DNA of 64,000 nucleotides from Planctomycetota bacterium (lineage in GTDB: Bacteria; Planctomycetota; PLA2; JAEUHO01). Positions 1 to 12,701 of the stretch are shown here, in pieces. How positions within the stretch are numbered: position 1 is the first letter of the stretch; each line of letters begins with the position of its first letter. Below the pieces are notes generated by a model that was given only the letters and a program-made list of their open reading frames with translations, did no database searches and was not told the origin of the DNA. Position numbers and translations under genes: made by a program. The DNA lies in NCBI GenBank assembly GCA_965222115.1, contig CBDCTJ010000007.1:1408001-1472000 (forward strand). Direction: 5' to 3'.

Positions 1-1389
1 AAGGGAAGTGGTGCTGTGGTCTCAGTGCTTGTCTTCCCCGTGCGGCGCGAAGGCACGGCCAAGGCGTTGCTCCGGCAAGCGGTGGATACAGCGGTCCGCG
101 GGCGTACGCGCAGCGGCTTTGGCATGCTCGACCAAAAATCGTTTCAGATCCTCGGGCGCGATGGAAGCGACGCACGCATTGAGATTGCGTTGGCGAAAGA
201 GAAGGCGCTCGGTCACGCGCGACTTCTACGCATTGCCGATGCGCAATGGGCATTTGCGTGGGGCTATGCGCCCGAGAAGGCACCTGCCGATGTGGCCGGT
301 CTCATCAAGCGTGTGGTGACGAGTCTACAAACCACCGATCCAGCGCTGTTCACACTGCGATTCGACGAGCGTCCCACGTTTTCTCGCGAAGTCGTGACGG
401 TCAAGGGCGAGGAGGCGATTCGCCGCGAACACATCATTGCCCTGCAACTGCTCTTAGAGGCCTCACGTGGAGAGCGCTATCCGGTAGCCGTGCGTCCCTT
501 GTTGCGCAAGGCGCTGGTGGATGACGCTCGACGATCGAAGTCGAAATGGCGTGATGGGTTTCGAGAAGCACTTCGTTCGGTGCGAAAGGCGGAGCATCAA
601 CCGCTTGACGTACGCCGTAAGCTCTTTACCGAATGGGGTACGGCAATCTTCGCTGGTTATGTTCTTCGCTCCGTGCGACGTGAACTCGCCGGCATGAAAG
701 TCACTACGATCTGGGAGAAGCTAAGTGCACCCGTAGCAACGCATAAAGGTGAGTCGCTCAAAACCTGCGACTACTCCGCCCTGGCAGAAATGGCATCGTT
801 CTTCGCGTCACTAGGACTGGATAAGGGCGTGCCCGTGAGCGACGAGATCCAAGCGAGCCTCAAGAAGTCGCTCGCGAAACGTTGGACGTCCCTCTGCGAT
901 CGCGCGGGATTCCCGGATTCGCCTGCCAAGAACAAGCAGGCCGAACCAAAGAAAGACGATGCCGATAGCCAGTCCAAGGATGCAGACGATCCGAGTAAGA
1001 GAAACGAATCGCCGAAGAAAGACGAATCGCCAGCACTTACCGACGATCAGAAAGCCGCACGCGCCGAAGTCGAACGCCTGCAACACGCCGATCGTCAATG
1101 GGCCACGCTTCGCTACGCCTGGGACCGCGCCGCGCCCGAAGCACGTTTGGCGTTTCGCAAGGCGTTGGTCAAACGTGTGTTTGCGGACAGCGAGGAGAAA
1201 TCGAAGGCAATTGATGCGCTCAAGAACCGAGCTGCTCTCAAGCGTTGGTTTGAGGCGCAGGATGCGGAACAAGCGCCGAGTGCAGATGATATTGTGCGTC
1301 GCATGATGGAAATGACGGGGGAAGAGCGAGAGGGACTGATCGAGATGCTGGGGGTGGGGGACGCGGATGACTTGAGGTTTGGGTGGTAA
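1..1389 (+). CDS. Hypothetical protein, probably 5'-truncated by the window edge
   Basis: Frame 1 is open from base 1 to TAA at 1389 (>=457 aa). It has a charged low-complexity linker (KQAEPKKDDADSQSKDADD); no family recognised. Confidence 0.6.
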   Translation, partial: KGSGAVVSVLVFPVRREGTAKALLRQAVDTAVRGRTRSGFGMLDQKSFQILGRDGSDARIEIALAKEKALGHARLLRIADAQWAFAWGYAPEKAPADVAGLIKRVVTSLQTTDPALFTLRFDERPTFSREVVTVKGEEAIRREHIIALQLLLEASRGERYPVAVRPLLRKALVDDARRSKSKWRDGFREALRSVRKAEHQPLDVRRKLFTEWGTAIFAGYVLRSVRRELAGMKVTTIWEKLSAPVATHKGESLKTCDYSALAEMASFFASLGLDKGVPVSDEIQASLKKSLAKRWTSLCDRAGFPDSPAKNKQAEPKKDDADSQSKDADDPSKRNESPKKDESPALTDDQKAARAEVERLQHADRQWATLRYAWDRAAPEARLAFRKALVKRVFADSEEKSKAIDALKNRAALKRWFEAQDAEQAPSADDIVRRMMEMTGEEREGLIEMLGVGDADDLRFGW

Positions 1390-1612
1390 CGTACGGATTC
1401 GTACCGGGAGCAAATGCGCAACATCACAATTTGTGCCGGGAGCGAATGCGCGGAGAGCCTCACGTTCCCAGCCCTCCCCTCCCAGGGGGAGAGTGGAAGC
1501 AAGTATGCGCGGAATTCTCGTGCTGGAAGGCACAGAGCCTTTCCACCCTCCGTCGCGACCCTGCCACCGCCCCGGTTGGTATCATTCCCCGCCCTGTCTC
1601 GGAGGACCCTTG

Positions 1613-3241
1613 ATGCGCTCAACCCAATCAACGCTGTGGCGAACGGTCACATGCGGCCTCGCACTTGCATTTGCCATTTCATTGGGAGCATGCGGCGGCG
1701 ATTCCGGTGGTGGTGACTCGGCCGACGGCGGGAAGAGGCTGACTGTTGAATTGCGCTACGGAAACAACTCGCGGCCCTACATGCCGTGGCCCGAGGACGT
1801 GGCCAAGCAGTTGGCGGGAGCCATGGAGAGTGCGGGCATTGATGTGAAACTTCGGAAAGAAGAGTGGAACCCCTTCTTGGATCAAGTGAAGAACGGCGAA
1901 CACCAAATGGCGATCCTCGGTTGGTCCGCCGACGTGGCCGATCCCGACAATTTCCTCTATGTCTTGCTCGATAAGGACAATGCTCGTCCCGGCAGCGCCA
2001 ACAATATCAGTTTCTACGACTCCGAAGAAGTCCATCAACTACTCACCAAGGCCCAGCGCATCGGTGACAAGGCTGAGCGCATCAAGCTCTACAAGAAGGC
2101 GCAAGAGATTATCTTCGACGACGTGCCCATGATGCCGTTGGTCTACAACCTGAAACTCCACGCGCATCGCAAAGAAGTGTCACCTCTTGAGGTGCAGCCC
2201 GTTACGCATCCCCTGCTGCGACTGATCAAGACGCCCCAGGACGGAGACCTTGTGTATCTGCGCGGCAGCGATAGCGAGATGCTGGATCCCGCCGATGTTA
2301 CGGATGGCGAAAGTTCCAAAGTCATTGAGCAAATCTATGACACGTTGACGCGATTCAAGTCGGGTACGAGCGACGTGGAGCCTTCGCTTGCCGAGTCCTG
2401 GACGCACAATGATGATCGCACGCAGTGGACGTTTCGCATTCGAGGCGGCGTCAAATTTCATGACGGCACGCCCGTGAACGGCGCAGCGGTCGTCAATGCC
2501 TTCGAGCGTCAACGCGACGAGAAACACCCGCATCATTTCCCCGATGGCACGTGGAGCTACTGGAAAGACAACTTCAAGTTCGTGGACAAGGTTCGCTTGG
2601 GCGACGATCCCATGGACGTTGTGTTCGAGCTCAATCGCGCGGCGCCGCCGTTTTTCCTGTCGTTGCTTGCCATGTTTACCACGTCCATTCCATCGCCGAC
2701 GGCACTCGAGCTCCACGGCAAAGACTTCCGCCGCAACCCGGTGGGATCAGGCCCCTTTCGATTCGTTTCTTGGAAATCGGCCGTTGAGATCAAGCTCGCG
2801 CGCAATGACGACTACTGGGACGGCGCGCCGGCCATTCAGTCTGTTTCATTCCAAGTTTCCCGCGATCCAACCGTGCGCGCTGAACGCTTGGCGTCTCACC
2901 AGCGCGCGGACATCATCGACAATCTCGATCCCCTCACGGTCGAAAAGCTCGCCGCCGACCCGGGCGTAACGATTGAGAAAATCCCCGGCCTCAACGTGTG
3001 CTATGCGGCCATGAACACACAAAAGCCCCCCTTCGACAACAAACTTGTCCGCCAGGCGATCGCGCATCTCGTAGACAAAGACCGCATTGTCAAAATCGTC
3101 TACCGCGGCGAAGGCAAGCCCGCCACGACCCCGCTTCCTCCTACGTTATTTGGTCACAATAGCGACATCGTGGATCGCAAGCGCGATGTGAAGAAGGCGA
3201 AAGAATTGCTGAAGCAGGCGGGGTATGGGGTGGGGGATTAG
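1613..3241 (+). CDS. dppA: Dipeptide/oligopeptide ABC transporter substrate-binding lipoprotein (SBP family 5, DppA-like), circularly permuted
   Basis: GGAGG at 1601-1605 precedes ATG 1613, and the lipobox is LGAC. DppA motifs RPYMP, LGWSADVADPDNFL, LDPA..DGES, LAESW..WTFRIRGGVKFHDGTP, PVGSGPF, PFDNKLVRQAIA and KAKELLKQAGY are all present but in rearranged order. Confidence 0.92.
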   Translation: MRSTQSTLWRTVTCGLALAFAISLGACGGDSGGGDSADGGKRLTVELRYGNNSRPYMPWPEDVAKQLAGAMESAGIDVKLRKEEWNPFLDQVKNGEHQMAILGWSADVADPDNFLYVLLDKDNARPGSANNISFYDSEEVHQLLTKAQRIGDKAERIKLYKKAQEIIFDDVPMMPLVYNLKLHAHRKEVSPLEVQPVTHPLLRLIKTPQDGDLVYLRGSDSEMLDPADVTDGESSKVIEQIYDTLTRFKSGTSDVEPSLAESWTHNDDRTQWTFRIRGGVKFHDGTPVNGAAVVNAFERQRDEKHPHHFPDGTWSYWKDNFKFVDKVRLGDDPMDVVFELNRAAPPFFLSLLAMFTTSIPSPTALELHGKDFRRNPVGSGPFRFVSWKSAVEIKLARNDDYWDGAPAIQSVSFQVSRDPTVRAERLASHQRADIIDNLDPLTVEKLAADPGVTIEKIPGLNVCYAAMNTQKPPFDNKLVRQAIAHLVDKDRIVKIVYRGEGKPATTPLPPTLFGHNSDIVDRKRDVKKAKELLKQAGYGVGD

Positions 3242-3455
3242 AAGGTCTTACAACCTATTGGGCACCCCGTCTTACTGCTTGTTTCTTGGCATTGGAATTG
3301 GCGTCGTTGGCACGCTACTGCTCACAGATTCGAAGCAGGCTACGGAATTCGACGCAGGTCGCGCGTTCTCGGGTTGAGTCAACGTCTTTGGAGAAGTTTT
3401 CGGCTGGGGGCCGAGATTTCATCCTCGACACAATCGGCGCAACACAATCAGTCAC

Positions 3456-3561
3456 CGGTCCCGAAGGGACATACGCGGATAGCCCAGGGTGCACAACGAG
3501 CGTAGCGAGTTGAAACCCTGGGACAAAACGCAACAACAATCTCAGCGCCCTGTAAGGGCGC
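3456..3561 (+). repeat. REP-like structured repeat, copy 1 (three hairpins)
   Basis: GTCCC-GAA-GGGAC (3458-3470), then GATAGC, a CCCAGGGT...ACCCTGGG stem (3483-3522), and GCGCCCT-GTA-AGGGCGC (3545-3561). Confidence 0.8.
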
Positions 3562-3594
3562 AAGCGTCTCCGCCAACCGATGCAACGTCATGAG

Positions 3595-4047
3595 TCAGTC
3601 CCAAATGTAGCGCTCGTCGTACACAACAAGATTTTGCTCAAACAGTTTCAGCAACTCTTCCTTGTACGTCCATTTGCGGTGGTGTTCTCGTTGGTGCTCA
3701 ATGTAGTCAATGACAGGTTCTTTGTGACTTGGGCTCACCGAGAAGGCGCCGTATCCATTCTGCCATCTAGAGTCGGCGAGTAGCGGTACCGAATCTCGGA
3801 TCCATCGCGTCGATCCAGTCTTGATGTTCTGAATGACCTTTGAAATGGCCTTGGTACGAGGAAGACTCAACATCAAGTGGATATGGTCATCTACGGATCC
3901 TGCAGACAGGAGTACTCCCCCAAGTCTTCGGACGATTCCTCCGATGTAGCTGTGCAGTTCACTCCGCCACGCGTCGCCTAGCAATGGCTTCCGGCCCTTT
4001 GTACTGAAGATTACATGAACCAAGATGTTGGAGAGTGATTGCGACAT
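3595..4047 (-). mobile_element. tnpA: IS200/IS605-family Y1 (HUH) transposase, REP-associated tyrosine transposase (RAYT)-like
   Basis: 150 aa with HVIFSTKGR, the HUH motif DHIHL, WQNGYGAFSVS and the catalytic YIEHQ..HH. No tnpB is adjacent, and the gene is flanked by inverted palindromic repeats. Confidence 0.92.
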
Positions 4048-4210
4048 GCACCTGCCTCAGAGTCGAACCCGTCTTGAATCTCGGCGCTCGACGTCGACGT
4101 TGCTAGATGCCGGCCCCAACACACTCTTCGCACAACTCCGTTGCAGGTAACACGTCGGGACGGATTCTTCATCCACCAGAATGGTTGGGATGCCTCTGCA
4201 AGTCGCACTA

Positions 4211-4302
4211 CCGCCCTTACAGGGCGGCGGATTATTGGGGAACCTCATACCAGGGTTCGGAAGCCTCACCCTTCGCTATCAGCTTCCATGCCTTCGGCAT
4301 GG
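4211..4302 (-). repeat. REP-like structured repeat, copy 2 (inverted relative to copy 1)
   Basis: The reverse complement reads CCATGCC-GAA-GGCATGG..GATAGC..AGGGTG..AACCCTGG..CCGCCCT-GTA-AGGGCGG, the same architecture as copy 1. Confidence 0.8.
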
Positions 4303-4519
4303 CCCTGTCTTCCATATGCCCAAGGACGAGTAACGGGTATTGGCCTAGCCCAACCACCAGGCATCCTTGGAAACGTCTCCGCGCATGTTTCCGCCGTCAA
4401 TACTACGAACGCGCCCTAGGAGCTTCATGATCTGTCCCTGCCACCTCTCTTGATCTGGGCAGAGCCACATCTTGTGTCAAGGCGTATCGTCAACACCTCC
4501 GAGTAACACAACCCTTAGA

Positions 4520-4650
4520 CGGTCCCGAAGGGACATACGTTGATAGCTCGGAGTGCCCGCGAGGAAACAGTGCGGGAGCGCAGCGAACTGAAACCCGGGG
4601 ACCTCGTGAATGAAACACAAACTGACCGCCCAGTATGGTTGGACGGGGCG
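4520..4650 (+). repeat. REP-like structured repeat, copy 3 (diverged)
   Basis: CGGTCCCGAAGGGACATACG is identical to copy 1. It is followed by GATAGC, GAGCGCAGCGA, TGAAACCCGGGGAC and a degenerate CGCCC...GGGCG terminal hairpin. Confidence 0.75.
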
Positions 4651-4770
4651 TGCGCAGGTTGAGATTCTGAATACCAGGGATCGGGCGAGGCGAAGGATTG
4701 AGATTCAGCTTCCGAAAGAGCGGGCAAGCAACAAGCGTATCGGCTAATTCAATATCGAATCAACCGCCCA

Positions 4771-6597
4771 CTACTTTAGGCGTGACAATTGTATGTCCAC
4801 AGCTGTCACTTTGTTCGGAAACACTTGAAACTCGGTGCTCGCTTGTTCGTACCCTGGCATCATGATTGCCAATAGATACTCCCCAGCCGGGCAACTTGTC
4901 AGCCACTCCCTTTGTTTGGGTGGAGTCCTCGTGTTGGATAGTGGAACTTGAATTCTTGCTGGGCCAAACTTCCCTGTGATGTTGTTCTTCAGTAGGGCCA
5001 TGAGCCGGGAACCGTAAATTCGTTGTCCACTGGCATTCTTTACTCGTACGAAGAACCCAGTGGGAGGTGGAAGCCGTACTTGATATTTGAGATTGTTCCC
5101 GGCTTCAATTTTTAGCTCTTCTCTCCTAACACCGTCTCGTACCCAAACTTTCAATTCGCGATCGGGAACACCTTTGAACGACCATTCGTTTCTTGTCTTG
5201 GAGCGCAGGCCGTCCAACAAGAATGAGAAATTGTTCTCCAGCCGAACTTCGAGGCTTAACTCGCTGGGAATCGCGACTTCTTTCGGATAATCATGCTTCA
5301 CGACTATCGAAAGTTCGCGGCGACTGAAAAAACCATGCCACGGAACTCTGACTCTCTCCCATCGAGCATCTTCATTGTGCTTCCATAGGCGCACCGTCGT
5401 GGCGATGGTGCCATACCCTGGGGAACTCACCTCGAGTTTCGCGTTTTGAGGTAAATCCGCCGAGCTGGTCCTAGATCGTCTTACGAATCCGGAGTACCTA
5501 GCTCTCCCAATTGATTGTTCACTTTTGAAGCCGTCTCGGCTTGAGCGCCACACGTCTTTCCAAAGGACGCGTTCCGTAACGAGCTCACATTTTGTTTGAC
5601 CGCCCGCCAACTTCTTCAGGCGCAAGACAGGCATCCCTGCGTCGAGTGGCTTGTTGGAATCCACCTCTTCTAATTCTAAAAAAAAAGCTCGCAATTCGTG
5701 CAGCGTAAACAGCACGTTTGCTCGACCAACTCTTACTACTTTGCTACTTAGAGACACAGTTCCACGTCCGGCATCGCCGCGGCTAGTACCGGCATATCCA
5801 GACGCACAGCAGCATAGTTGCACAGCCGATAGGTTGTTGGAAACTGATATTGAAAAGCTGCCATCGTTAAGGGTTCTCGTACTTCGCATGTTTACAGCAG
5901 CCGGTGCGGAGCCATTTCCTTCGTCGCTCCATGAACCTGAACAGCGAGTAATCAATTCTTGGCTTGCTCCAATGGGCAGGCAGCATACCTGGGCTTTTGC
6001 GATAGGCGCGCCAGAATCATCCACAACTCTGCCCGACACGGTTGCACCTAACGGGTCCATCCCAATCTCGTGGGCACCAGAATCAGAGATGACGCTTAGT
6101 ACCTCGCTTTGCATCTCCTCAATCGCGTCTTCGTACCCAGCCGATCTAACGATTAGTTTCAAGACCTCTCGTGAACTGGGGATTTGGGCGGTCCCCTTTT
6201 CGCCCGATGTTCGACGGAAAACTACATCTTCATTCTTCAGCGCAAGCAAGTTAGATGATCGCCTGAGTCCCCAGATATGCGCGTTGGAGATTGGGAGCTT
6301 CGTTTTTCGGTCAACTACCGAGACCGCGAAAGAAGTCCCTGCTTCGCTCGGCTCAGGCATATCCTCGCTTGCGTCCTGCAACGAATCTACCACGCTCCCC
6401 TCAAGTGTGCTGTTCGACGAAAGTCCTACATCGTCTCCCAAGATCGCCGTGAGGTGACTATATCGGTCGTCGGCCCGCGCTGATCTCGTAGCTGTCGTGT
6501 CTTGGATCAGCGCCAAGTACAGAAAGTAGCCCGCGCAGGCAGCCATGACTCCTACACATATGAGCAGTCGGGGCGACCGCTCAAATAGCGTTCTCAT
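4771..6597 (-). CDS. Membrane-anchored protein with several carboxypeptidase-regulatory-like (Ig/prealbumin-like) beta-sandwich domains
   Basis: ATG at 6597 overlaps the upstream stop (ATGA). There is an N-terminal TM helix, and repeated motifs VSVVDRKTKLPISNAHI, VSGRVVDDSGAPIAKAQV..DGSFSI, VRVKNASGQRI..GEYLLAIMMPGYE. Confidence 0.75.
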   Translation of the reverse strand: MRTLFERSPRLLICVGVMAACAGYFLYLALIQDTTATRSARADDRYSHLTAILGDDVGLSSNSTLEGSVVDSLQDASEDMPEPSEAGTSFAVSVVDRKTKLPISNAHIWGLRRSSNLLALKNEDVVFRRTSGEKGTAQIPSSREVLKLIVRSAGYEDAIEEMQSEVLSVISDSGAHEIGMDPLGATVSGRVVDDSGAPIAKAQVCCLPIGASQELITRCSGSWSDEGNGSAPAAVNMRSTRTLNDGSFSISVSNNLSAVQLCCCASGYAGTSRGDAGRGTVSLSSKVVRVGRANVLFTLHELRAFFLELEEVDSNKPLDAGMPVLRLKKLAGGQTKCELVTERVLWKDVWRSSRDGFKSEQSIGRARYSGFVRRSRTSSADLPQNAKLEVSSPGYGTIATTVRLWKHNEDARWERVRVPWHGFFSRRELSIVVKHDYPKEVAIPSELSLEVRLENNFSFLLDGLRSKTRNEWSFKGVPDRELKVWVRDGVRREELKIEAGNNLKYQVRLPPPTGFFVRVKNASGQRIYGSRLMALLKNNITGKFGPARIQVPLSNTRTPPKQREWLTSCPAGEYLLAIMMPGYEQASTEFQVFPNKVTAVDIQLSRLK

Positions 6598-7154
6598 TGA
6601 CACGTGCAGCCGGAATTTGAAACACCAGTCCAAATGGGGGGGTCTAGTGGCATCGGCGGGGTCCACACGATGCCGACGTCCTCGCAAGTCAAGGAGGATC
6701 CGATGCACTCGCCCTCACAGCCCTTCCAAAGCGTGTTCCCACTCTGAGGGTCACTGTATCGAACTGAATCGCACAGCCAGGGTCCGTTCCCGCCGACTTG
6801 GTCGGGATAGTGCCAACCAAAGTGAGTCCCGCTAATGAATATGGGGCAGGTACACGTCGCCCGAGTCACCACCGTGCCCGCTAGCCCTGAGGGATGTCCG
6901 GCTGGTACCGTGTATCCTGGGAAGTCCTGAAGTTGACAATCCGGAACGGACCCTCCCGGGCAGGGTCCATCGCAGTCTATGACCTGAAGAAAGTCAAAGA
7001 AAATTGGCGTCCCTCCGATAGTCAACCAGAAGCCTTCGTAGTGCAGCGTCTTGCCGCGGCACTGGCCAGATTGCGCGGACGCTATATTAAACCCACCGAG
7101 CGCAATCGAACATATCGCGACCAATAAGGGAGCAATTCCTATCCAAAACCTCAT
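6594..7154 (-). CDS. Secreted cysteine-rich protein with two tandem 6-Cys (cystine-knot-like) modules
   Basis: AGGAGGA RBS at 7162-7168, a signal peptide with an ASA|Q cleavage site, and 12 Cys in the mature part arranged as 2 x C-CxGxC-C-CTC. Confidence 0.85.
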   Translation of the reverse strand: MRFWIGIAPLLVAICSIALGGFNIASAQSGQCRGKTLHYEGFWLTIGGTPIFFDFLQVIDCDGPCPGGSVPDCQLQDFPGYTVPAGHPSGLAGTVVTRATCTCPIFISGTHFGWHYPDQVGGNGPWLCDSVRYSDPQSGNTLWKGCEGECIGSSLTCEDVGIVWTPPMPLDPPIWTGVSNSGCTCQ

Positions 7155-7175
7155 TCGTGTATCCTCCTGCTAGAT

Positions 7176-7535
7176 TTATGCCCTAGACTGACTAGACGCA
7201 CGCCAAATTTCGAGACTCGTGATAACTACTAGGCCGCTCACTACCATCGCTATCCCATCTGACATCTTAGCCGCCCCAAGGCAGCCACATTGACCGACAG
7301 GTCGCGGGTGCAGGAGTCGTGCGAAGGCTGCGCCAGCGTATGCGAAAGCCAGCACAAAGGCAGTGGGCCTTGCAGTAATCGGTACGGCAATTCCGACGGC
7401 GCACAACAGCTCAAGTAAGGCGACTTCCGTGTTTGGTCCCTGGCGATCGGGAGATGATCCGTCCCCTGAGAGCTTTTCATAGACTGCCCACACTAAGAAC
7501 AGGACTAAGGACCAACGCAGGGCGTGCCAGTACAT
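7176..7535 (-). CDS. MauE/DoxX-family redox-associated membrane protein
   Basis: GAGGAG RBS precedes ATG 7535. The protein has ~4 hydrophobic segments, an ELL..G motif and the MauE-type CGCLG motif. Confidence 0.72.
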   Translation of the reverse strand: MYWHALRWSLVLFLVWAVYEKLSGDGSSPDRQGPNTEVALLELLCAVGIAVPITARPTAFVLAFAYAGAAFARLLHPRPVGQCGCLGAAKMSDGIAMVVSGLVVITSLEIWRASSQSRA

Positions 7536-7795
7536 TTGAGACTCCTCACTCCTCAACCCTATACGAGCCTTTGGGACGAAGCGCCGAAAAGCTGAGAGAA
7601 ATCCACACGGATCTAAATTTATGTTTTGAACCCGCTCCATAGGCCGATGTGACTAGGCAAGATCACTTGAGATATCTAGCACTGAGCCTGGACATAACAC
7701 TACATCCGTGAATCTAGGCCCTTGCCACTCACCGCGGAGTCCACATTGGCGCAAAAGGTCGCGCTGCTTAGGTTGAGGCGCCTACGTTCTTGTGC

Positions 7796-8191
7796 TCAAT
7801 TCAAAATCGAATCATCCGCCCACTCCGGCGTCCACACGATTTCGCACGGTTGCAGCGTGTCAAACTCGTCCCACGAGAGATTGAACGTGAAGATCCAGTC
7901 GGCGACATCCAGGCGAATGTCGAGATCGAGCACGAACGAGTCTAACTTGCGATACGTGGACGTGCGGGCGCGCCGGAGTTTGCGAATCAGCTTGCGCATA
8001 TCGGGGTCTTCGCCTGGGACCGCAGCCGTTCCGAGTTTGCCGTTGCCGCAATTCCAAATGAACTCGGCGACTTGGAGATTGGTCTCCTTGTCCCACTTGA
8101 GGAAGCCGGGTTCAAAGGCAATGAGCGTGAATTGCACGACTGCATTGGCCTCCTTGAGAACAACGTCCTCGGGCTTGATGAACTTCTTCAT
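7796..8191 (-). CDS. Hypothetical protein (131 aa, soluble, acidic C-terminus)
   Basis: Composition is protein-like from MKKFIKPEDVV, and a purine-rich AGAAGGGG lies upstream. The longer ORF-track start would overlap the next gene. Confidence 0.65.
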   Translation of the reverse strand: MKKFIKPEDVVLKEANAVVQFTLIAFEPGFLKWDKETNLQVAEFIWNCGNGKLGTAAVPGEDPDMRKLIRKLRRARTSTYRKLDSFVLDLDIRLDVADWIFTFNLSWDEFDTLQPCEIVWTPEWADDSILN

Positions 8192-8261
8192 ACCCCTTCT
8201 ACGCACGAGTGCGCGAAAGGTAACATATCGCCACAAAGCCCGGGCGCATCTCCGAAGACGG

Positions 8262-10706
8262 CTACTTGGCCACCCCCGGCACAAGTCCACCGAAAACCGC
8301 GCTCGGCACCCAATGCGTGGCTTCGTCGTAGGCGCGCATGGCCTTCGTACTGGGAGGCAACAGTTCAAATTTGATCCAGCGCCGCATGCCGCGGAGGAGG
8401 TCATAGCATGATTTATTGAGCGCCGCATTGCTGTCGAGTTGCGTAATGATGAGGTCGTAAATGCCATCAATGCCTCGCAACCAATGCGGCCGGCTCGTTG
8501 CGCGAGGTTCGAATGGGGCCAAACGTGCCATGATCGATCCGTTTCCTGAAGAGAGTAGCTGCGACACATCGTTGCGAGCATCAGATTGCGTCCGAGCGAG
8601 GCCTGCCGTCGCGAACCAATACCACAGGCCCTCTCGCCGCTGTGCGCGCGATTGCTCGAGATACGTCGTAATGCGCGGATCGTTTACAGCGCCCAGTCGT
8701 GCAAGCCCGGCGTAACTGCGGTCTGCCAACACCATGGCGGCGGAGACAGTATCGCCCGCACGAAAGTGTTTCCATGCCGCGCGCGAGTCCTTTCGCTCCT
8801 GAATGTGGCGCTCACCCTCTTCGGCCTCGAAGGTCGCGTCTGCGTTGTGCCACAAGAACTCAAGCTCATTCGCCCCGGTAGCGCGAACTACAAGCGCTGT
8901 CAATGCGTCGATCGATCTGGCTTCATCATCGTGATAATGGACACCCTTTATTTCAGGGTCGGGGGCGAGCCTACGGAGTTCTGCGTCGATCGTCTTGTTC
9001 TGTACGTACGTAAGTGATCGACGATGTCGAGACTTCCAGTAGACCGAGCCCTCACCGCGAAACGCCTTGAGCATGACATCTTCATGTCCGGTCACGCCCA
9101 GGCGTGCCAATGCCGCAAGAAGCGAGGGCTTGATCCCTGGCTGCGATTCTAAAAGTGTCGTAATGAGTGCAATCGTTGCGTCGCGATCCCGCACTTCAAG
9201 CAGCGATAGCAATCGGAGCCAATGAACTTCATCGCCGCGGCTCTGTTTCAAGTCAGGTAAGCTTGAGAGTCGCTTTGCAAGTCGTTTGGCACGCTCACGC
9301 GAAAGACTCTCGGGATCCGCATTCACGTGCCACTCAGCGAGTTTACGAATGTGCGTCGTCGATTCGGGGTCCATCGTGTTCCACAGCGCGTCGCTCAACA
9401 TTCGTAGATGATTCGGTGTGATGTTTACGCCAAACATGCGGCGCATAAGTTCTCGCATGCCGGGTGTGAACTGCACAGACGCACGCGATCGCCGATCCAT
9501 CGGCCCATTCAAGATTCGTTTCGCGGCTCGCGTGGCCGATTCCTTGGGCAATGCACGCCACGACATGAGTTCTACAAACGCATTGACGCGAGCCGATCGG
9601 CTGGCATCTTGCTTCTGGTGGCGCTCTAGACGCTCGCGATAGACCTCGGGCTTTCCCAGCAACGCAAGTGCGGTTGCCGCGCACCAACTGCGTTCGTCGC
9701 GGTTCTTTGTCAGCGCCAACACTTGTTCGGCGTCTTCTTTGGAAAGCCTCGCACGATGTCGCATGCTCCATGTGCCGAGGTTCACGATGTGAGAGGCAAA
9801 CGCTCGCGTCGGCGCGTCAAACGCGTCAACGAATGTCCTGAGAAATGGAAGGTCCTTTTCTGCCGGTTGATAACGCATGAGCGCGAGTTGAATCCACGAC
9901 TTTGGCGCAGACACACTCAATGGCTTGTTCTTTGGATCGCCGATATCGAATCCCCGTTTGCGGTCATTCAACGAACGAAAGAGCTCCAGGATCCCCTCCG
10001 GGAGGCCACCGTCGCTGGGCACTTGGGTTCGCGGCGAGACCGAGGCGAGTGTGGGCGGCTTCGTGTTGGCACGTTCCGCACGCAAGCGCTCCAATCCGTA
10101 TAGCAGTCCCACGAGAATCGCATCTTGATGTTTGAACTCGGAGTCGAACTCGCAAACGTCAATGAATGCGTCGAGCAACTGTTCAAACATAGGTGTGGGG
10201 CTTGACGCCAATAGCGGGAGAAGTCCGGCAAGCTGGCGTGGCGTGAGGCAGCTTCGTACTCGCTTGTAGTCGATTCGTTCGCGCTGTTTTTCCGTGGCGG
10301 TAGCGGCTAGCTTAAGGTGTGAAGGAATGTCTTCGGACCGCAACGTGCCATTGGACTTGTCTATGGCCCACCAAGGCGCACGGGAGATAGCCTCCAGCGA
10401 ACCACTGAGCAGTTTCCGCTTGCGCGCCATTCCCTCGGTGTCGAGATTCGGGAAGTCCAGTCCCCGCGCCGCTTGTCTCGCTAGTTTGAGATCCTCGCCC
10501 TCGAAGGCGGCGCGCAGCACGTTTCGCTTGTGGCTTGCGTAAGTCTCTCGGCTACGCCACCACTGGCGAACTTCTTTGTGTTTGGCATGCGCTTCGTCGA
10601 GTAGCGCGCGAAACGTGTCGAGTTCACCTTTGGCGCTGGCCGTGTGAGGCGGCGCCAACAACAGGAGGACAGAAATTAGACCCATTCGCGCAAGGGAGAT
10701 ACGCAT
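8262..10706 (-). CDS. Large exported alpha-helical (HEAT/ARM-like) hypothetical protein
   Basis: >800-aa ORF with a signal peptide (..LLLLAPPHTASA|K) and HEAT-like segments such as CAATALALLG and LLAALARLG. The start is uncertain. Confidence 0.65.
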   Translation of the reverse strand: MRISLARMGLISVLLLLAPPHTASAKGELDTFRALLDEAHAKHKEVRQWWRSRETYASHKRNVLRAAFEGEDLKLARQAARGLDFPNLDTEGMARKRKLLSGSLEAISRAPWWAIDKSNGTLRSEDIPSHLKLAATATEKQRERIDYKRVRSCLTPRQLAGLLPLLASSPTPMFEQLLDAFIDVCEFDSEFKHQDAILVGLLYGLERLRAERANTKPPTLASVSPRTQVPSDGGLPEGILELFRSLNDRKRGFDIGDPKNKPLSVSAPKSWIQLALMRYQPAEKDLPFLRTFVDAFDAPTRAFASHIVNLGTWSMRHRARLSKEDAEQVLALTKNRDERSWCAATALALLGKPEVYRERLERHQKQDASRSARVNAFVELMSWRALPKESATRAAKRILNGPMDRRSRASVQFTPGMRELMRRMFGVNITPNHLRMLSDALWNTMDPESTTHIRKLAEWHVNADPESLSRERAKRLAKRLSSLPDLKQSRGDEVHWLRLLSLLEVRDRDATIALITTLLESQPGIKPSLLAALARLGVTGHEDVMLKAFRGEGSVYWKSRHRRSLTYVQNKTIDAELRRLAPDPEIKGVHYHDDEARSIDALTALVVRATGANELEFLWHNADATFEAEEGERHIQERKDSRAAWKHFRAGDTVSAAMVLADRSYAGLARLGAVNDPRITTYLEQSRAQRREGLWYWFATAGLARTQSDARNDVSQLLSSGNGSIMARLAPFEPRATSRPHWLRGIDGIYDLIITQLDSNAALNKSCYDLLRGMRRWIKFELLPPSTKAMRAYDEATHWVPSAVFGGLVPGVAK

Positions 10707-10795
10707 CAGCAAGCTCCGCAATTCAATTGGCCAACGGCGTAGCATACTCGCCCAAGGTGGTGGGAATAAACGCGGCGCGGTATGGTCGCGTCGCG

Positions 10796-11815
10796 ATGTT
10801 GCTCTACGTGCTCCGCCGTCTGGTACTGACGATTCCCCTGCTGCTCGGGGTGTCGTTTCTCGTTTTCGTGGTGGTCACGAGCATTCCCGGTGACCCGTGC
10901 CTGCGGAAGTTGGGCGCCAAGACCAGTCCCGAGGCTTTGGCTGGATGCCGAACGGCGTTGAAGTTGGATCGTCCCTTCCCGGAACGCTACGCCCACTTCG
11001 TTACGAATGCGGCTCAGCTCGACTTTGGCGAAGACCTCGTCACGGGCGAAGACGTAGGACCGGTCATCATGGAGCGCTTGGCGCCCACGGTTGAGTTGAC
11101 GCTCGTGGCGTTGTTTCTTGCCTTCATACTCGGCACCTGGATTGGCACGCGCTCGGCGCTTCGACCGGGCACATGGTTTGATGCATTTGGTCAAGTCGTG
11201 AGCTTGGCGGGCGTTTCAATCCCCGTGTTTTGGTTGGGCCTCATGTTGTCGGCGTGGCTCGGTTCGCGTCTCGGGTGGTTGCCATTCAGTGGTTGGCACG
11301 CCGATCAAATCGGACCCGACGTCAACTATGCGACGGGCTTCTATATGACTGAGTCGCTGTTCCGACTCGAATTGGGCTCGTTCTTTCGTGCGCTCAAACA
11401 CATCGCGCTGCCCGCAATGACGCTGGCGACGATTCCGCTTGCAACCATTACGCGCATGACGCGTTCGTCGGTGCTCGAAGAAGTGGGTCAAGACTATGTA
11501 ACGACAGCGCGCTCCAAGGGACTAAACGAACGGGTGGTGATTGGGCGACACGTTCGGCGCAACGCGTTAATTCCCGTGGTTACCATCACCGGGCTTCAAC
11601 TTGGGTCGCTTCTTTCGGGCGCGGTTCTTACGGAGACCATTTTCAGTTGGCCCGGACTCGGGACACACATGGTGGAAGCGGCCGACGCGCGAAACTATCC
11701 CGTGCTCATTGGCTGCATGATGCTGTTTGTTGTGATTTTCATTCTGGTAAACTTGCTCGTGGACGTGCTCTATCACTGGATCGATCCCCGTATGCGCGCG
11801 GCGAGTGGCGTCTAA
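10796..11815 (+). CDS. dppB: Peptide ABC transporter permease (DppB/OppB family)
   Basis: YVLRRL N-terminus, IPGDP, LDFG, GVSIPVFWLG, EAA loop DYVTTARSKGL..RHVRRNALIP, GAVLTETIFSWPGLG, DPR C-terminus. Confidence 0.95.
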   Translation: MLLYVLRRLVLTIPLLLGVSFLVFVVVTSIPGDPCLRKLGAKTSPEALAGCRTALKLDRPFPERYAHFVTNAAQLDFGEDLVTGEDVGPVIMERLAPTVELTLVALFLAFILGTWIGTRSALRPGTWFDAFGQVVSLAGVSIPVFWLGLMLSAWLGSRLGWLPFSGWHADQIGPDVNYATGFYMTESLFRLELGSFFRALKHIALPAMTLATIPLATITRMTRSSVLEEVGQDYVTTARSKGLNERVVIGRHVRRNALIPVVTITGLQLGSLLSGAVLTETIFSWPGLGTHMVEAADARNYPVLIGCMMLFVVIFILVNLLVDVLYHWIDPRMRAASGV

Positions 11816-12701
11816 GGTGGTGGGCGAGGTTCCTACGGGCCGAATTGCACAGTTGTGGCATCGATTCCGTTTGGGCATACGCGCACTTTGCAAGGATCGC
11901 GGTGCGCTCGTCGGTCTCGTGTTGATCGGGCTTGTATTGTTGATGGCCGCTACCGCCGACTTTGCCACCTGGAACCCGAGTCAACTCGACTACGACATCG
12001 ACTTCGCACCCGCTCCGCCTTCCGGAACGCACTTGCTCGGTACCGACGCCGCGGGCTTTGATGTGTGGTCACGACTCTTGCATGGCTCCCGCCTTTCGCT
12101 GCTAACGGGCGTGATGGCGATCGTGCTCGCGCTTTCCATCGGTGTTCCCATGGGTGCGATCAGTGGTTATGCCGGCGGGTGGACCGATAGCATTTTGATG
12201 CGCGCCGTCGACGTCATGTTGGCGTTTCCAAGCGTGGTATTGGCCGTTGGCATCGCCGCGGTCTTGGACAAGCGTGCGATGTCCACATTGATCATATCCG
12301 TCGGTATTGTAAACATTCCGACCATCGCCAGGCAGGTTCGCGCATCGGTATTGCAGGCCAAGAGCCACGAGTATGTGACGGCCGCGAAGGCCATGGGCAT
12401 GTCGCCGCTTCGCATTCTTCGACGCCACGTTTTGCCCAACTGTTTGGCGCCCATCATTGTCTTGAGCACGCTTGGCGTTGGGAGTGCGATTTTGACGGCG
12501 GCGGGATTGAGTTTTCTCGGTCTCGGTCCCGATGCGCGCGTGGCCGAATGGGGCGTCATGCTCACCGACGGCAAACGCTTCATCTCACGACCCGAACAAT
12601 GGGTAATCATTCCGCCGGGCGTTGCCATTGCCATCACGGTTCTCGGGTTCAATCTGGTGGGGGACGGCCTACGACGAGCGTTGGATCCGCGCTCGCGATG
12701 A
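11805..12701 (+). CDS. dppC: Peptide ABC transporter permease (DppC/OppC family)
   Basis: HLLGTD..G.DVWSRLLHGSRLSL, EYVTAAKAMG, HVLPN, LSFLGLG, FNLVGDGLRRALDPR. Confidence 0.95.
   Translation: MASKVVGEVPTGRIAQLWHRFRLGIRALCKDRGALVGLVLIGLVLLMAATADFATWNPSQLDYDIDFAPAPPSGTHLLGTDAAGFDVWSRLLHGSRLSLLTGVMAIVLALSIGVPMGAISGYAGGWTDSILMRAVDVMLAFPSVVLAVGIAAVLDKRAMSTLIISVGIVNIPTIARQVRASVLQAKSHEYVTAAKAMGMSPLRILRRHVLPNCLAPIIVLSTLGVGSAILTAAGLSFLGLGPDARVAEWGVMLTDGKRFISRPEQWVIIPPGVAIAITVLGFNLVGDGLRRALDPRSR

Follow-up and report, generated by a model that had tools for sequence, protein, structure and literature searches.

The stretch of DNA analyzed here, called the window below, comprises 64,000 nucleotides of a Planctomycetota genome (GenBank assembly GCA_965222115.1, contig CBDCTJ010000007.1, positions 1,408,001 to 1,472,000), and our subject is a cysteine-rich gene in it together with its two immediate neighbours. 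On the reverse strand, in the order of transcription, there lie a gene for a MauE-like membrane protein of DsbB type (7176..7640), the cysteine-rich gene (6594..7154, with its stop codon at 6594-6596) and a gene for a 608-residue protein that is anchored by a single membrane pass and has CarboxypepD_reg-like beta-sandwich domains (4771..6597; PF13620, E 1.5e-15, 57.7 bits). The product of the cysteine-rich gene, P0001, has 186 residues and, judging from sequence comparison, belongs to a previously undescribed and fast-diverging family built of two tandem six-cysteine modules. The reading we favour, with a probability of about 0.65, is that this is an exported disulfide-rich family which travels with a dedicated MauE-like oxidase and an anchored beta-sandwich protein.

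The cysteine-rich gene is preceded by the Shine-Dalgarno (SD) sequence AGGAGG (7163..7168), read from the sequence 8 nucleotides 5' of the ATG at 7154; its start falls 21 nucleotides past the stop of the MauE-like gene, and its own stop overlaps the start of the next gene as ATGA. Residues 1-27 of P0001 (7074..7154) were judged by eye to be a Sec-type signal peptide cut between A-S-A and Q, so that the mature protein would begin at Q28 and have 159 residues. Cysteines stand at positions 15, 32, 61, 65, 73, 101, 103, 128, 146, 150, 157, 183 and 185, the first of them within the predicted signal peptide, which leaves 12 in the mature chain. Module 1 (residues 28-105, 6840..7073) reads C32-x28-C61DGPC65-x7-C73-x27-C101TC103 and module 2 (residues 120-186, 6597..6797) reads C128-x17-C146EGEC150-x6-C157-x25-C183TC185-Q up to the C-terminus, as delimited by cysteine positions and, for the second, by alignments; the intervals are thus 28/3/7/27/1 and 17/3/6/25/1, with CDGPC and CTC in the one and CEGEC and CTC in the other. 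This is exactly the layout of signal peptide and two modules with 12 mature cysteines given in the preliminary description of this DNA, as the open reading frame (ORF) and its cysteine positions confirm. A scan for promoters and terminators returned no site, being uninformative for this phylum.

Could the ORF be spurious, a non-coding frame with an accidental pattern? Such an explanation agrees with an exhaustive single-sequence search that gave no homolog, and it has against it the strong SD site, the operon-like spacing, the signal peptide and 7 more members with the same framework and neighbours. In 200,000 composition-preserving shuffles of mature P0001, at least one strict module arose in 85 and two modules in none, against two in the real protein; and among 40,583 six-frame ORFs of at least 60 residues in the 4.55-Mb genome of the window, the strict module pattern occurs in 2, namely the P0001 gene and one paralog. 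Because of the SD site, the operon-like spacing and the homologs that keep the cysteine framework, we regard 6594..7154 as a real gene, and the contrary explanation is in effect ruled out, since family and synteny are conserved.

Eight members of the family were collected, very divergent from one another and spread over 4 Planctomycetota genomes, with 5 in the genome of the window alone; they share the 12-cysteine framework at about 19-30% identity to P0001. Stepwise searches of several kinds were needed to find the 7 further members, all of which keep that framework. A whole-genome search of 61 relatives gave a homolog in genome G025 that is 31% identical and is annotated as a hypothetical protein of a Planctomycetes metagenome-assembled genome; paralog b was found by a regular-expression scan of the window's own genome (P0001 and its neighbours being copy a); the members in genomes G020 and G101 came from profile searches; and paralogs c, d and e were found by inspecting the surroundings of the 11 MauE-like matches in the own genome. 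Members are present in 3 of 40 genomes of the class, and in a phylum sample of 401 genomes there were matches in 5, two of which are weak (G015 and G141, one within the class) and one of which, in G101, is clear and outside the class, G101 belonging to a different family within the phylum. Sixteen further genomes of the order of G101 yielded no member.

Larger collections added little to these. A word-seeded single-sequence search of 5.8 billion proteins returned the query alone, and profile searches of the same set gave only P0001 and one homolog, P0003, the other members being evidently absent from it; an exhaustive phmmer search of 1.84 billion representatives gave likewise only the query, apart from a repetitive protein of 2827 residues that was judged spurious from its repeat composition. 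Searches for related loci in genome and metagenome collections recovered only the G025-type locus again, and tblastn against plasmid and phage collections found no match. Some matches with E>0.01 were inspected and dropped as they are without the cysteine framework. Scans against Pfam and NCBIfam at E<=10 gave no family match for P0001, nor did Pfam match the other full-length proteins of the family, and the literature searched on bacterial and prokaryotic cystine knots, on MauE and on cysteine-rich planctomycete proteins held nothing relevant, with supplementary files, where lists of MauE neighbours might be found, outside the scope of that search. Assignment to an already described family, which would have told against the earlier proposal, was thus found neither in these databases nor in these papers.

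In all 8 members a signal peptide is followed by two modules, as the alignment and the table of cysteine gaps make plain, and the N-termini of the 7 homologs are likewise hydrophobic and end in A-x-A/G ahead of the first cysteine. The module spacing across the family is C1-x17..28-C2-x2..5-C3-x3..9-C4-x10..27-C5-x-C6. It had been proposed that true relatives would keep both CxGxC and the terminal CxC, and this holds in part: CxC ends 15 of the 16 modules, and strict CxGxC is found in 10, while the C2-C3 loop in the remaining 6 has 2, 4 or 5 residues and does not keep the central glycine. Where the C-x3-C spacing is present the glycine is invariant (10/10), and in the 8 modules of the strict subfamily C2, G, C3, C4, C5 and C6 are all invariant. 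Such a pattern fits a constraint limited to the smallest ring, where it should be borne in mind that the 10 strict modules are related and hence not independent. The last cysteine is the penultimate residue in 5 of the 8 proteins. Extra cysteines occur in two members, as a CC pair in paralog d and as two more cysteines in the G020 protein. In paralog e (L019:1992..2393, reverse strand; G000:C7, about 2.82 Mb) the reading frame stays open and encodes a good core of a signal peptide, but it contains no start codon in frame; the closest ATG, preceded by GGAGG, is shifted relative to it by one base, with a short A-run in between. The sequence may contain an error here, or the gene may be frameshifted or a pseudogene.

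A MauE-like gene lies at all 8 loci of the family. The copy in the window, whose true start is likely M36, carries C-G-C-L-G between predicted transmembrane helices, matches Pfam PF07291 with E 7.8e-5 and is 34% identical over 67 residues to the MauE-like protein of a paralogous cassette. Among 7 scanned MauE-like neighbours, PF07291 scores above the Pfam gathering cut-off in 4 and below it in 3, and the copy in G101 is recognised only by its CGCFG. The motif CXC, followed by F, L or A and then by G, is found in 6 of the 8 copies; the copy at locus d has CxxC, and that of G020 is truncated at the motif. The MauE-like gene of G020 (L031:6445..6702, reverse strand) ends at the expected CXC motif, with unrelated sequence beyond, and was probably truncated through rearrangement; a phage-type integrase stands on the opposite side of that cassette. 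A 2026 preprint (bioRxiv 10.64898/2026.03.05.709764) reports that MauE homologs can substitute for the DsbB of E. coli and that this depends on the CXC motif; the CGCLG of the window fits the active site described there, CXC plus a hydrophobic residue plus glycine.

The large partner, a single-pass membrane protein of 560-630 residues, is encoded in 7 of the 8 cassettes, the others being 20-23% identical to that of the window; CarboxypepD_reg is matched above the gathering cut-off at 5 of the 8 loci, below it at 2, and with no match at locus d. In cassette d (L035; G000:C4:1-9000), two membrane proteins of about 320-340 residues without family match take the place of the large protein. A complex prediction for the large-protein ectodomain with the cysteine-rich protein returned no answer (score 0.00) and tells neither for nor against contact between the two.

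The three genes are held together in four different arrangements over the 7 intact three-gene loci. The order is MauE-like, cysteine-rich and large gene in the window; cysteine-rich, MauE-like and large in G025 and in cassette c; cysteine-rich, large and MauE-like in cassette b, G020 and G101; and in cassette e the cysteine-rich gene is followed by a single ORF of 742 residues in which MauE-like and large protein are fused. Since the linkage is kept despite the shuffled order, and in e even as a fusion, it argues that the three proteins would act together. In the genome of the window 11 MauE-like matches were counted, 5 of them above the Pfam cut-off and 5 of them being the cassette copies; the surroundings of the other six were checked for cysteine-rich ORFs and contained none that was convincing.

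What fold the modules adopt is the point on which the preliminary description went furthest, since it took them for growth-factor-type cystine knots whose tandem pair would be the single-chain equivalent of the usual dimer, acting as a signalling ligand, a eukaryote-directed mimic or a toxin. The cystine-knot fold is counted among the defining features of extracellular signalling in animals, and the form of it to be compared here is the PDGF/VEGF knot (PF00341; VEGF-E, PDB 3v6b and 2gnn). Both modules of P0001 show the six-cysteine signature C1..C2-x-G-x-C3..C4..C5-x-C6, with six or seven residues between C3 and C4 as in that knot and a spacing near that of VEGF-E (C-x3-C-x6-C in the alignment); the glycine invariant in the 10 modules with a three-residue loop and the single residue left after C6 in 5 of the 8 members point the same way. 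Built on an alignment of 8 rows, the AlphaFold2 (AF2) model of module 1 is of moderate confidence (predicted local distance difference test, pLDDT, 69; predicted template-modelling score, pTM, 0.40) and consists of two beta-hairpins and no other secondary structure, with strands 13-19/22-28 and 47-55/68-75 and cysteines at module positions 5, 34, 38, 46, 74 and 76, so that the predicted hairpins occupy the C1-C2 and C4-C5 intervals, the same pair as in PDGF/VEGF. The modelling suggested earlier succeeded to this extent, whereas the full-length protein, modelled from a 2-row alignment, reached a pLDDT of 32 and is unusable.

Sequence and structure comparisons lean in the direction of the growth-factor knot with no match that is significant. 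When the 8 modules were scanned against Pfam, the sole match was PDGF/VEGF PF00341 to one module (E 0.14, 12.9 bits against a cut-off of 27); a PDB search with the 8-module profile gave only the VEGF-E chains 3v6b_A and 2gnn_A (E 0.74 and 0.89), aligned across C-x-G-x-C-x6-C, and these insignificant matches are the best that the family has in Pfam and the PDB. Profiles of 4 and of 16 modules matched nothing in the PDB, and two further profiles (A3 and A9) gave no growth-factor match there. The Foldseek comparison with the PDB proposed earlier came out negative, the best match having E 5.8 and template-modelling (TM) scores reaching at most 0.34; of its 11 insignificant matches, 3 are cystine-knot factors, namely Norrin twice (TM 0.23) and llama OIF (TM 0.34), which we take to be beta-NGF. 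Foldseek against BFVD found nothing, the ESM Atlas had no usable match for P0001, and the Atlas model of the homolog P0003 (pTM 0.64) has neighbours with TM of at most 0.40, no growth factor being listed among them; all of these structure comparisons are weakened by the elongated hairpin folds and the moderate confidence of the models. No TGF_beta Pfam match accompanies the echoes of the BMP/GDF termini pointed out before.

The family also departs from PDGF/VEGF in several respects: it is bacterial, not animal or viral; it has two modules per chain and no evidence of dimerisation; it tolerates C2-C3 loops of 2-5 residues, with 6 of 16 modules having loops of 2, 4 or 5 and one module lacking CxC; and its genes stand next to those for a disulfide oxidase and an anchored beta-sandwich protein. 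With regard to a ligand or mimic directed at eukaryotes, the gene belongs to a bacterial cassette for the cell envelope, carried on a mobile island, and the genomes that hold such cassettes are planctomycete, at least 2 of them metagenome-assembled; there is no sign of a eukaryotic host, no receptor-like or secretion-system genes lie nearby, and that part of the earlier proposal is left without support. Altogether the signature and the two predicted hairpins stand, the significant match that would identify the fold does not, and we would give the modules roughly one chance in three of being growth-factor-type knots; that they are true knots serving in tandem as a signalling ligand, mimic or toxin is a possibility on the doubtful side.

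The neighbouring genes offer a second comparison. In the mau cluster, as here, the gene for a MauE-family CXC membrane protein adjoins one whose small exported product has 12 cysteines. According to the preprint (bioRxiv 10.64898/2026.03.05.709764), MauE was first described as maturing, together with MauD, the six-disulfide small subunit MauA, and it is a DsbB-like disulfide generator. From the 12 mature cysteines and the MauE-like neighbour of P0001 one might suppose that its cysteines, like those of MauA, bind a metal or cofactor or form cross-linked cofactor sites and are not purely structural disulfides. Against this, P0001 matches neither the methylamine dehydrogenase light chain nor any other Pfam family at E<=10, no conserved tryptophan pair is evident in the family alignment, and its modular and duplicated cysteine spacing is presumably unlike that of MauA. 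Membership of the light-chain family is contradicted by the surroundings also, as the cassette holds no dehydrogenase large subunit or other mau gene and no MauD-like thioredoxin, and the neighbours are a CarboxypepD_reg-like anchored protein, fused to MauE in one cassette, and a protein without family match. We therefore regard cofactor sites as very improbable.

The reading that we prefer, an exported disulfide-rich family with its own oxidase and anchored partner, starts from the gene content, the motifs and the conserved linkage observed at these loci, and from them we infer all of the following biochemistry. After export the signal peptide would be cleaved at residue 27/28. The MauE-like oxidase, quinone-linked and DsbB-like, would then provide oxidising equivalents for six disulfides, either directly or by way of a general periplasmic thioredoxin-fold carrier. 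Each module would fold into two beta-hairpins with three disulfides clamping their base, and the leading, still unproven, model of this clamp is a knot in which C1-C4 is threaded through the C2xGxC3/C5xC6 ring. The rigid, protease-resistant product may work in the envelope or outside the cell, jointly with the anchored beta-sandwich protein.

Several points weigh against this preferred reading, in addition to the unusable full-length model and the missing structural neighbours given above. The MauE-like ORF of the window scores 23.4 bits with PF07291, below the cut-off of 27. MauE as a general oxidase has been proposed only in the 2026 preprint (bioRxiv 10.64898/2026.03.05.709764); MauE may be such a general oxidase in this genome too, so that adjacency alone could mislead, and the pairing of oxidase and cysteine-rich client is to be taken as putative and not as proven. 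The cassette encodes no thioredoxin-fold carrier, and no cysteine is conserved in the alignment of the large proteins. Compared by hhalign, modules 1 and 2 have a probability of 17% over 12 columns; as they are barely similar otherwise, it is from the cysteine framework alone that an internal duplication is suggested.

The cassette of the window lies within an inserted island of about 7.6 kb (3242..10800, ends approximate; all genes on the reverse strand), which splits the operon of an oligopeptide-type ATP-binding cassette (ABC) transporter. On one side stands the solute-binding protein (SBP) gene, SBP_bac_5 (1379..3241, forward strand), and beyond the island follow two permease genes, BPD_transp_1 (about 10800..12701, forward strand). 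In the relatives the SBP gene and permeases 1 and 2 are contiguous, with gaps of about 100 nucleotides, in 11 of 11 loci examined, for which reason we consider the 7.6-kb stretch an insertion; the guanine plus cytosine content is 0.51-0.54 within it and 0.57-0.60 outside. Besides the three-gene cassette, the island contains an element of IS200 type, an insertion sequence (IS), and a secreted protein of 827 residues. The IS200-type element (3434..4556, reverse strand; Pfam Y1_Tnp, E 1.1e-23) sits at the island edge and includes a Y1 transposase ORF (3595..4047, reverse strand); it is flanked by a 59-nucleotide direct repeat (3434-3492 and 4498-4556, 76% identical) with the palindrome GGTCCCGAAGGGAC, and the transposase ORF is flanked by a perfect 15-nucleotide inverted repeat (3546-3560 and 4212-4226). 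The 827-residue protein (8262..10745, reverse strand) begins with a signal peptide and is matched by nothing in Pfam, NCBIfam or PADLOC, and since no paralog of it was found beside the other cassettes, or elsewhere in the genome, it was not counted as part of the cassette.

Transposases (IS200, IS110, IS66) or an integrase adjoin 4 of the 8 cassettes, that of the window having IS200 and the three others IS110, IS66 or a phage-type integrase. On this evidence and that of the split operon and the patchy occurrence among relatives, the cassette is mobile; in the own genome it has multiplied to 5 divergent copies. From this mobility, multiplication and patchiness our guess is that a role in surface recognition or in antagonism between microbes is likelier than housekeeping.

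One form of such antagonism can be stated in detail: the cysteine-rich protein could be a bacteriocin-like antagonist, stabilised by disulfides and matured, as sublancin is, by an oxidase of its own, and the beta-sandwich protein would confer immunity or assist in export. The sunA operon of prophage SPbeta sets a precedent for an oxidase that is dedicated to a client encoded next to it on mobile DNA: its gene bdbB codes for the membrane thiol-disulfide oxidoreductase BdbB, which matures the disulfide-bonded secreted sublancin (PMC6391423). The layout here is similar. The mobile island, the patchy distribution with very fast divergence, and the five divergent paralogous cassettes of one genome, of which d shares a 28.7-kb contig with a gene judged by eye to be ParA-like, all agree with an antagonist of this kind. 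The differences from the sunA operon are no less clear. The oxidase belongs to another family; sublancin is a glycocin of small size, made with a leader peptide and accompanied by its ABC exporter and an immunity gene. P0001, by contrast, is a 159-residue substrate with an ordinary Sec signal, and neither an ABC exporter nor a leader peptidase nor any gene recognisable as one for immunity is found. The mature size, and some 600 residues for an 'immunity' protein, are atypical; PADLOC gave no matches, and the plasmid and phage collections were without a match, as said above. We think a bacteriocin-like antagonist rather unlikely, more so than the knotted ligand or mimic and less so than cofactor sites. 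The contig of cassette d may be a plasmid.

Should the knot be confirmed, the fold would be present in free-living bacteria as well, along with the enzyme making its disulfides; this would be relevant to how the fold arose and would offer a bacterial route to the production of knotted scaffolds. A bolder form of the same idea, namely that these are the first genuine growth-factor-type knots from bacteria, two in tandem, in a mobile planctomycete family with its own MauE oxidase and anchored binding partner, seems to us tentative and on balance improbable; if true, the animal cystine-knot cytokine fold has a prokaryotic counterpart or arose twice. Even without the knot there remain a family of proteins that is new and unannotated, a cassette of three genes that is conserved, and candidates for the natural clients of the disulfide pathway of MauE. 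We call the family and the cassette new because no described family or paper was found in the searches that were run; the cassette is a new variation on the theme of a dedicated oxidase plus client, and a confirmed knot would be far more unusual.

Some minor observations concern the DNA around these cassettes. The G101 cassette is flanked by IS66-like remnants, seen by eye only. Next to cassette b lies an ORF of 1107 residues (L023:3566..6889, reverse strand; G000:C7, about 2.97 Mb), in which TPR-like repeats and a CHAT-like C-terminal region were noticed by eye. Contigs from 3 sequencing runs, one of them possibly the source of the same DNA, are identical to the window wherever they overlap it.

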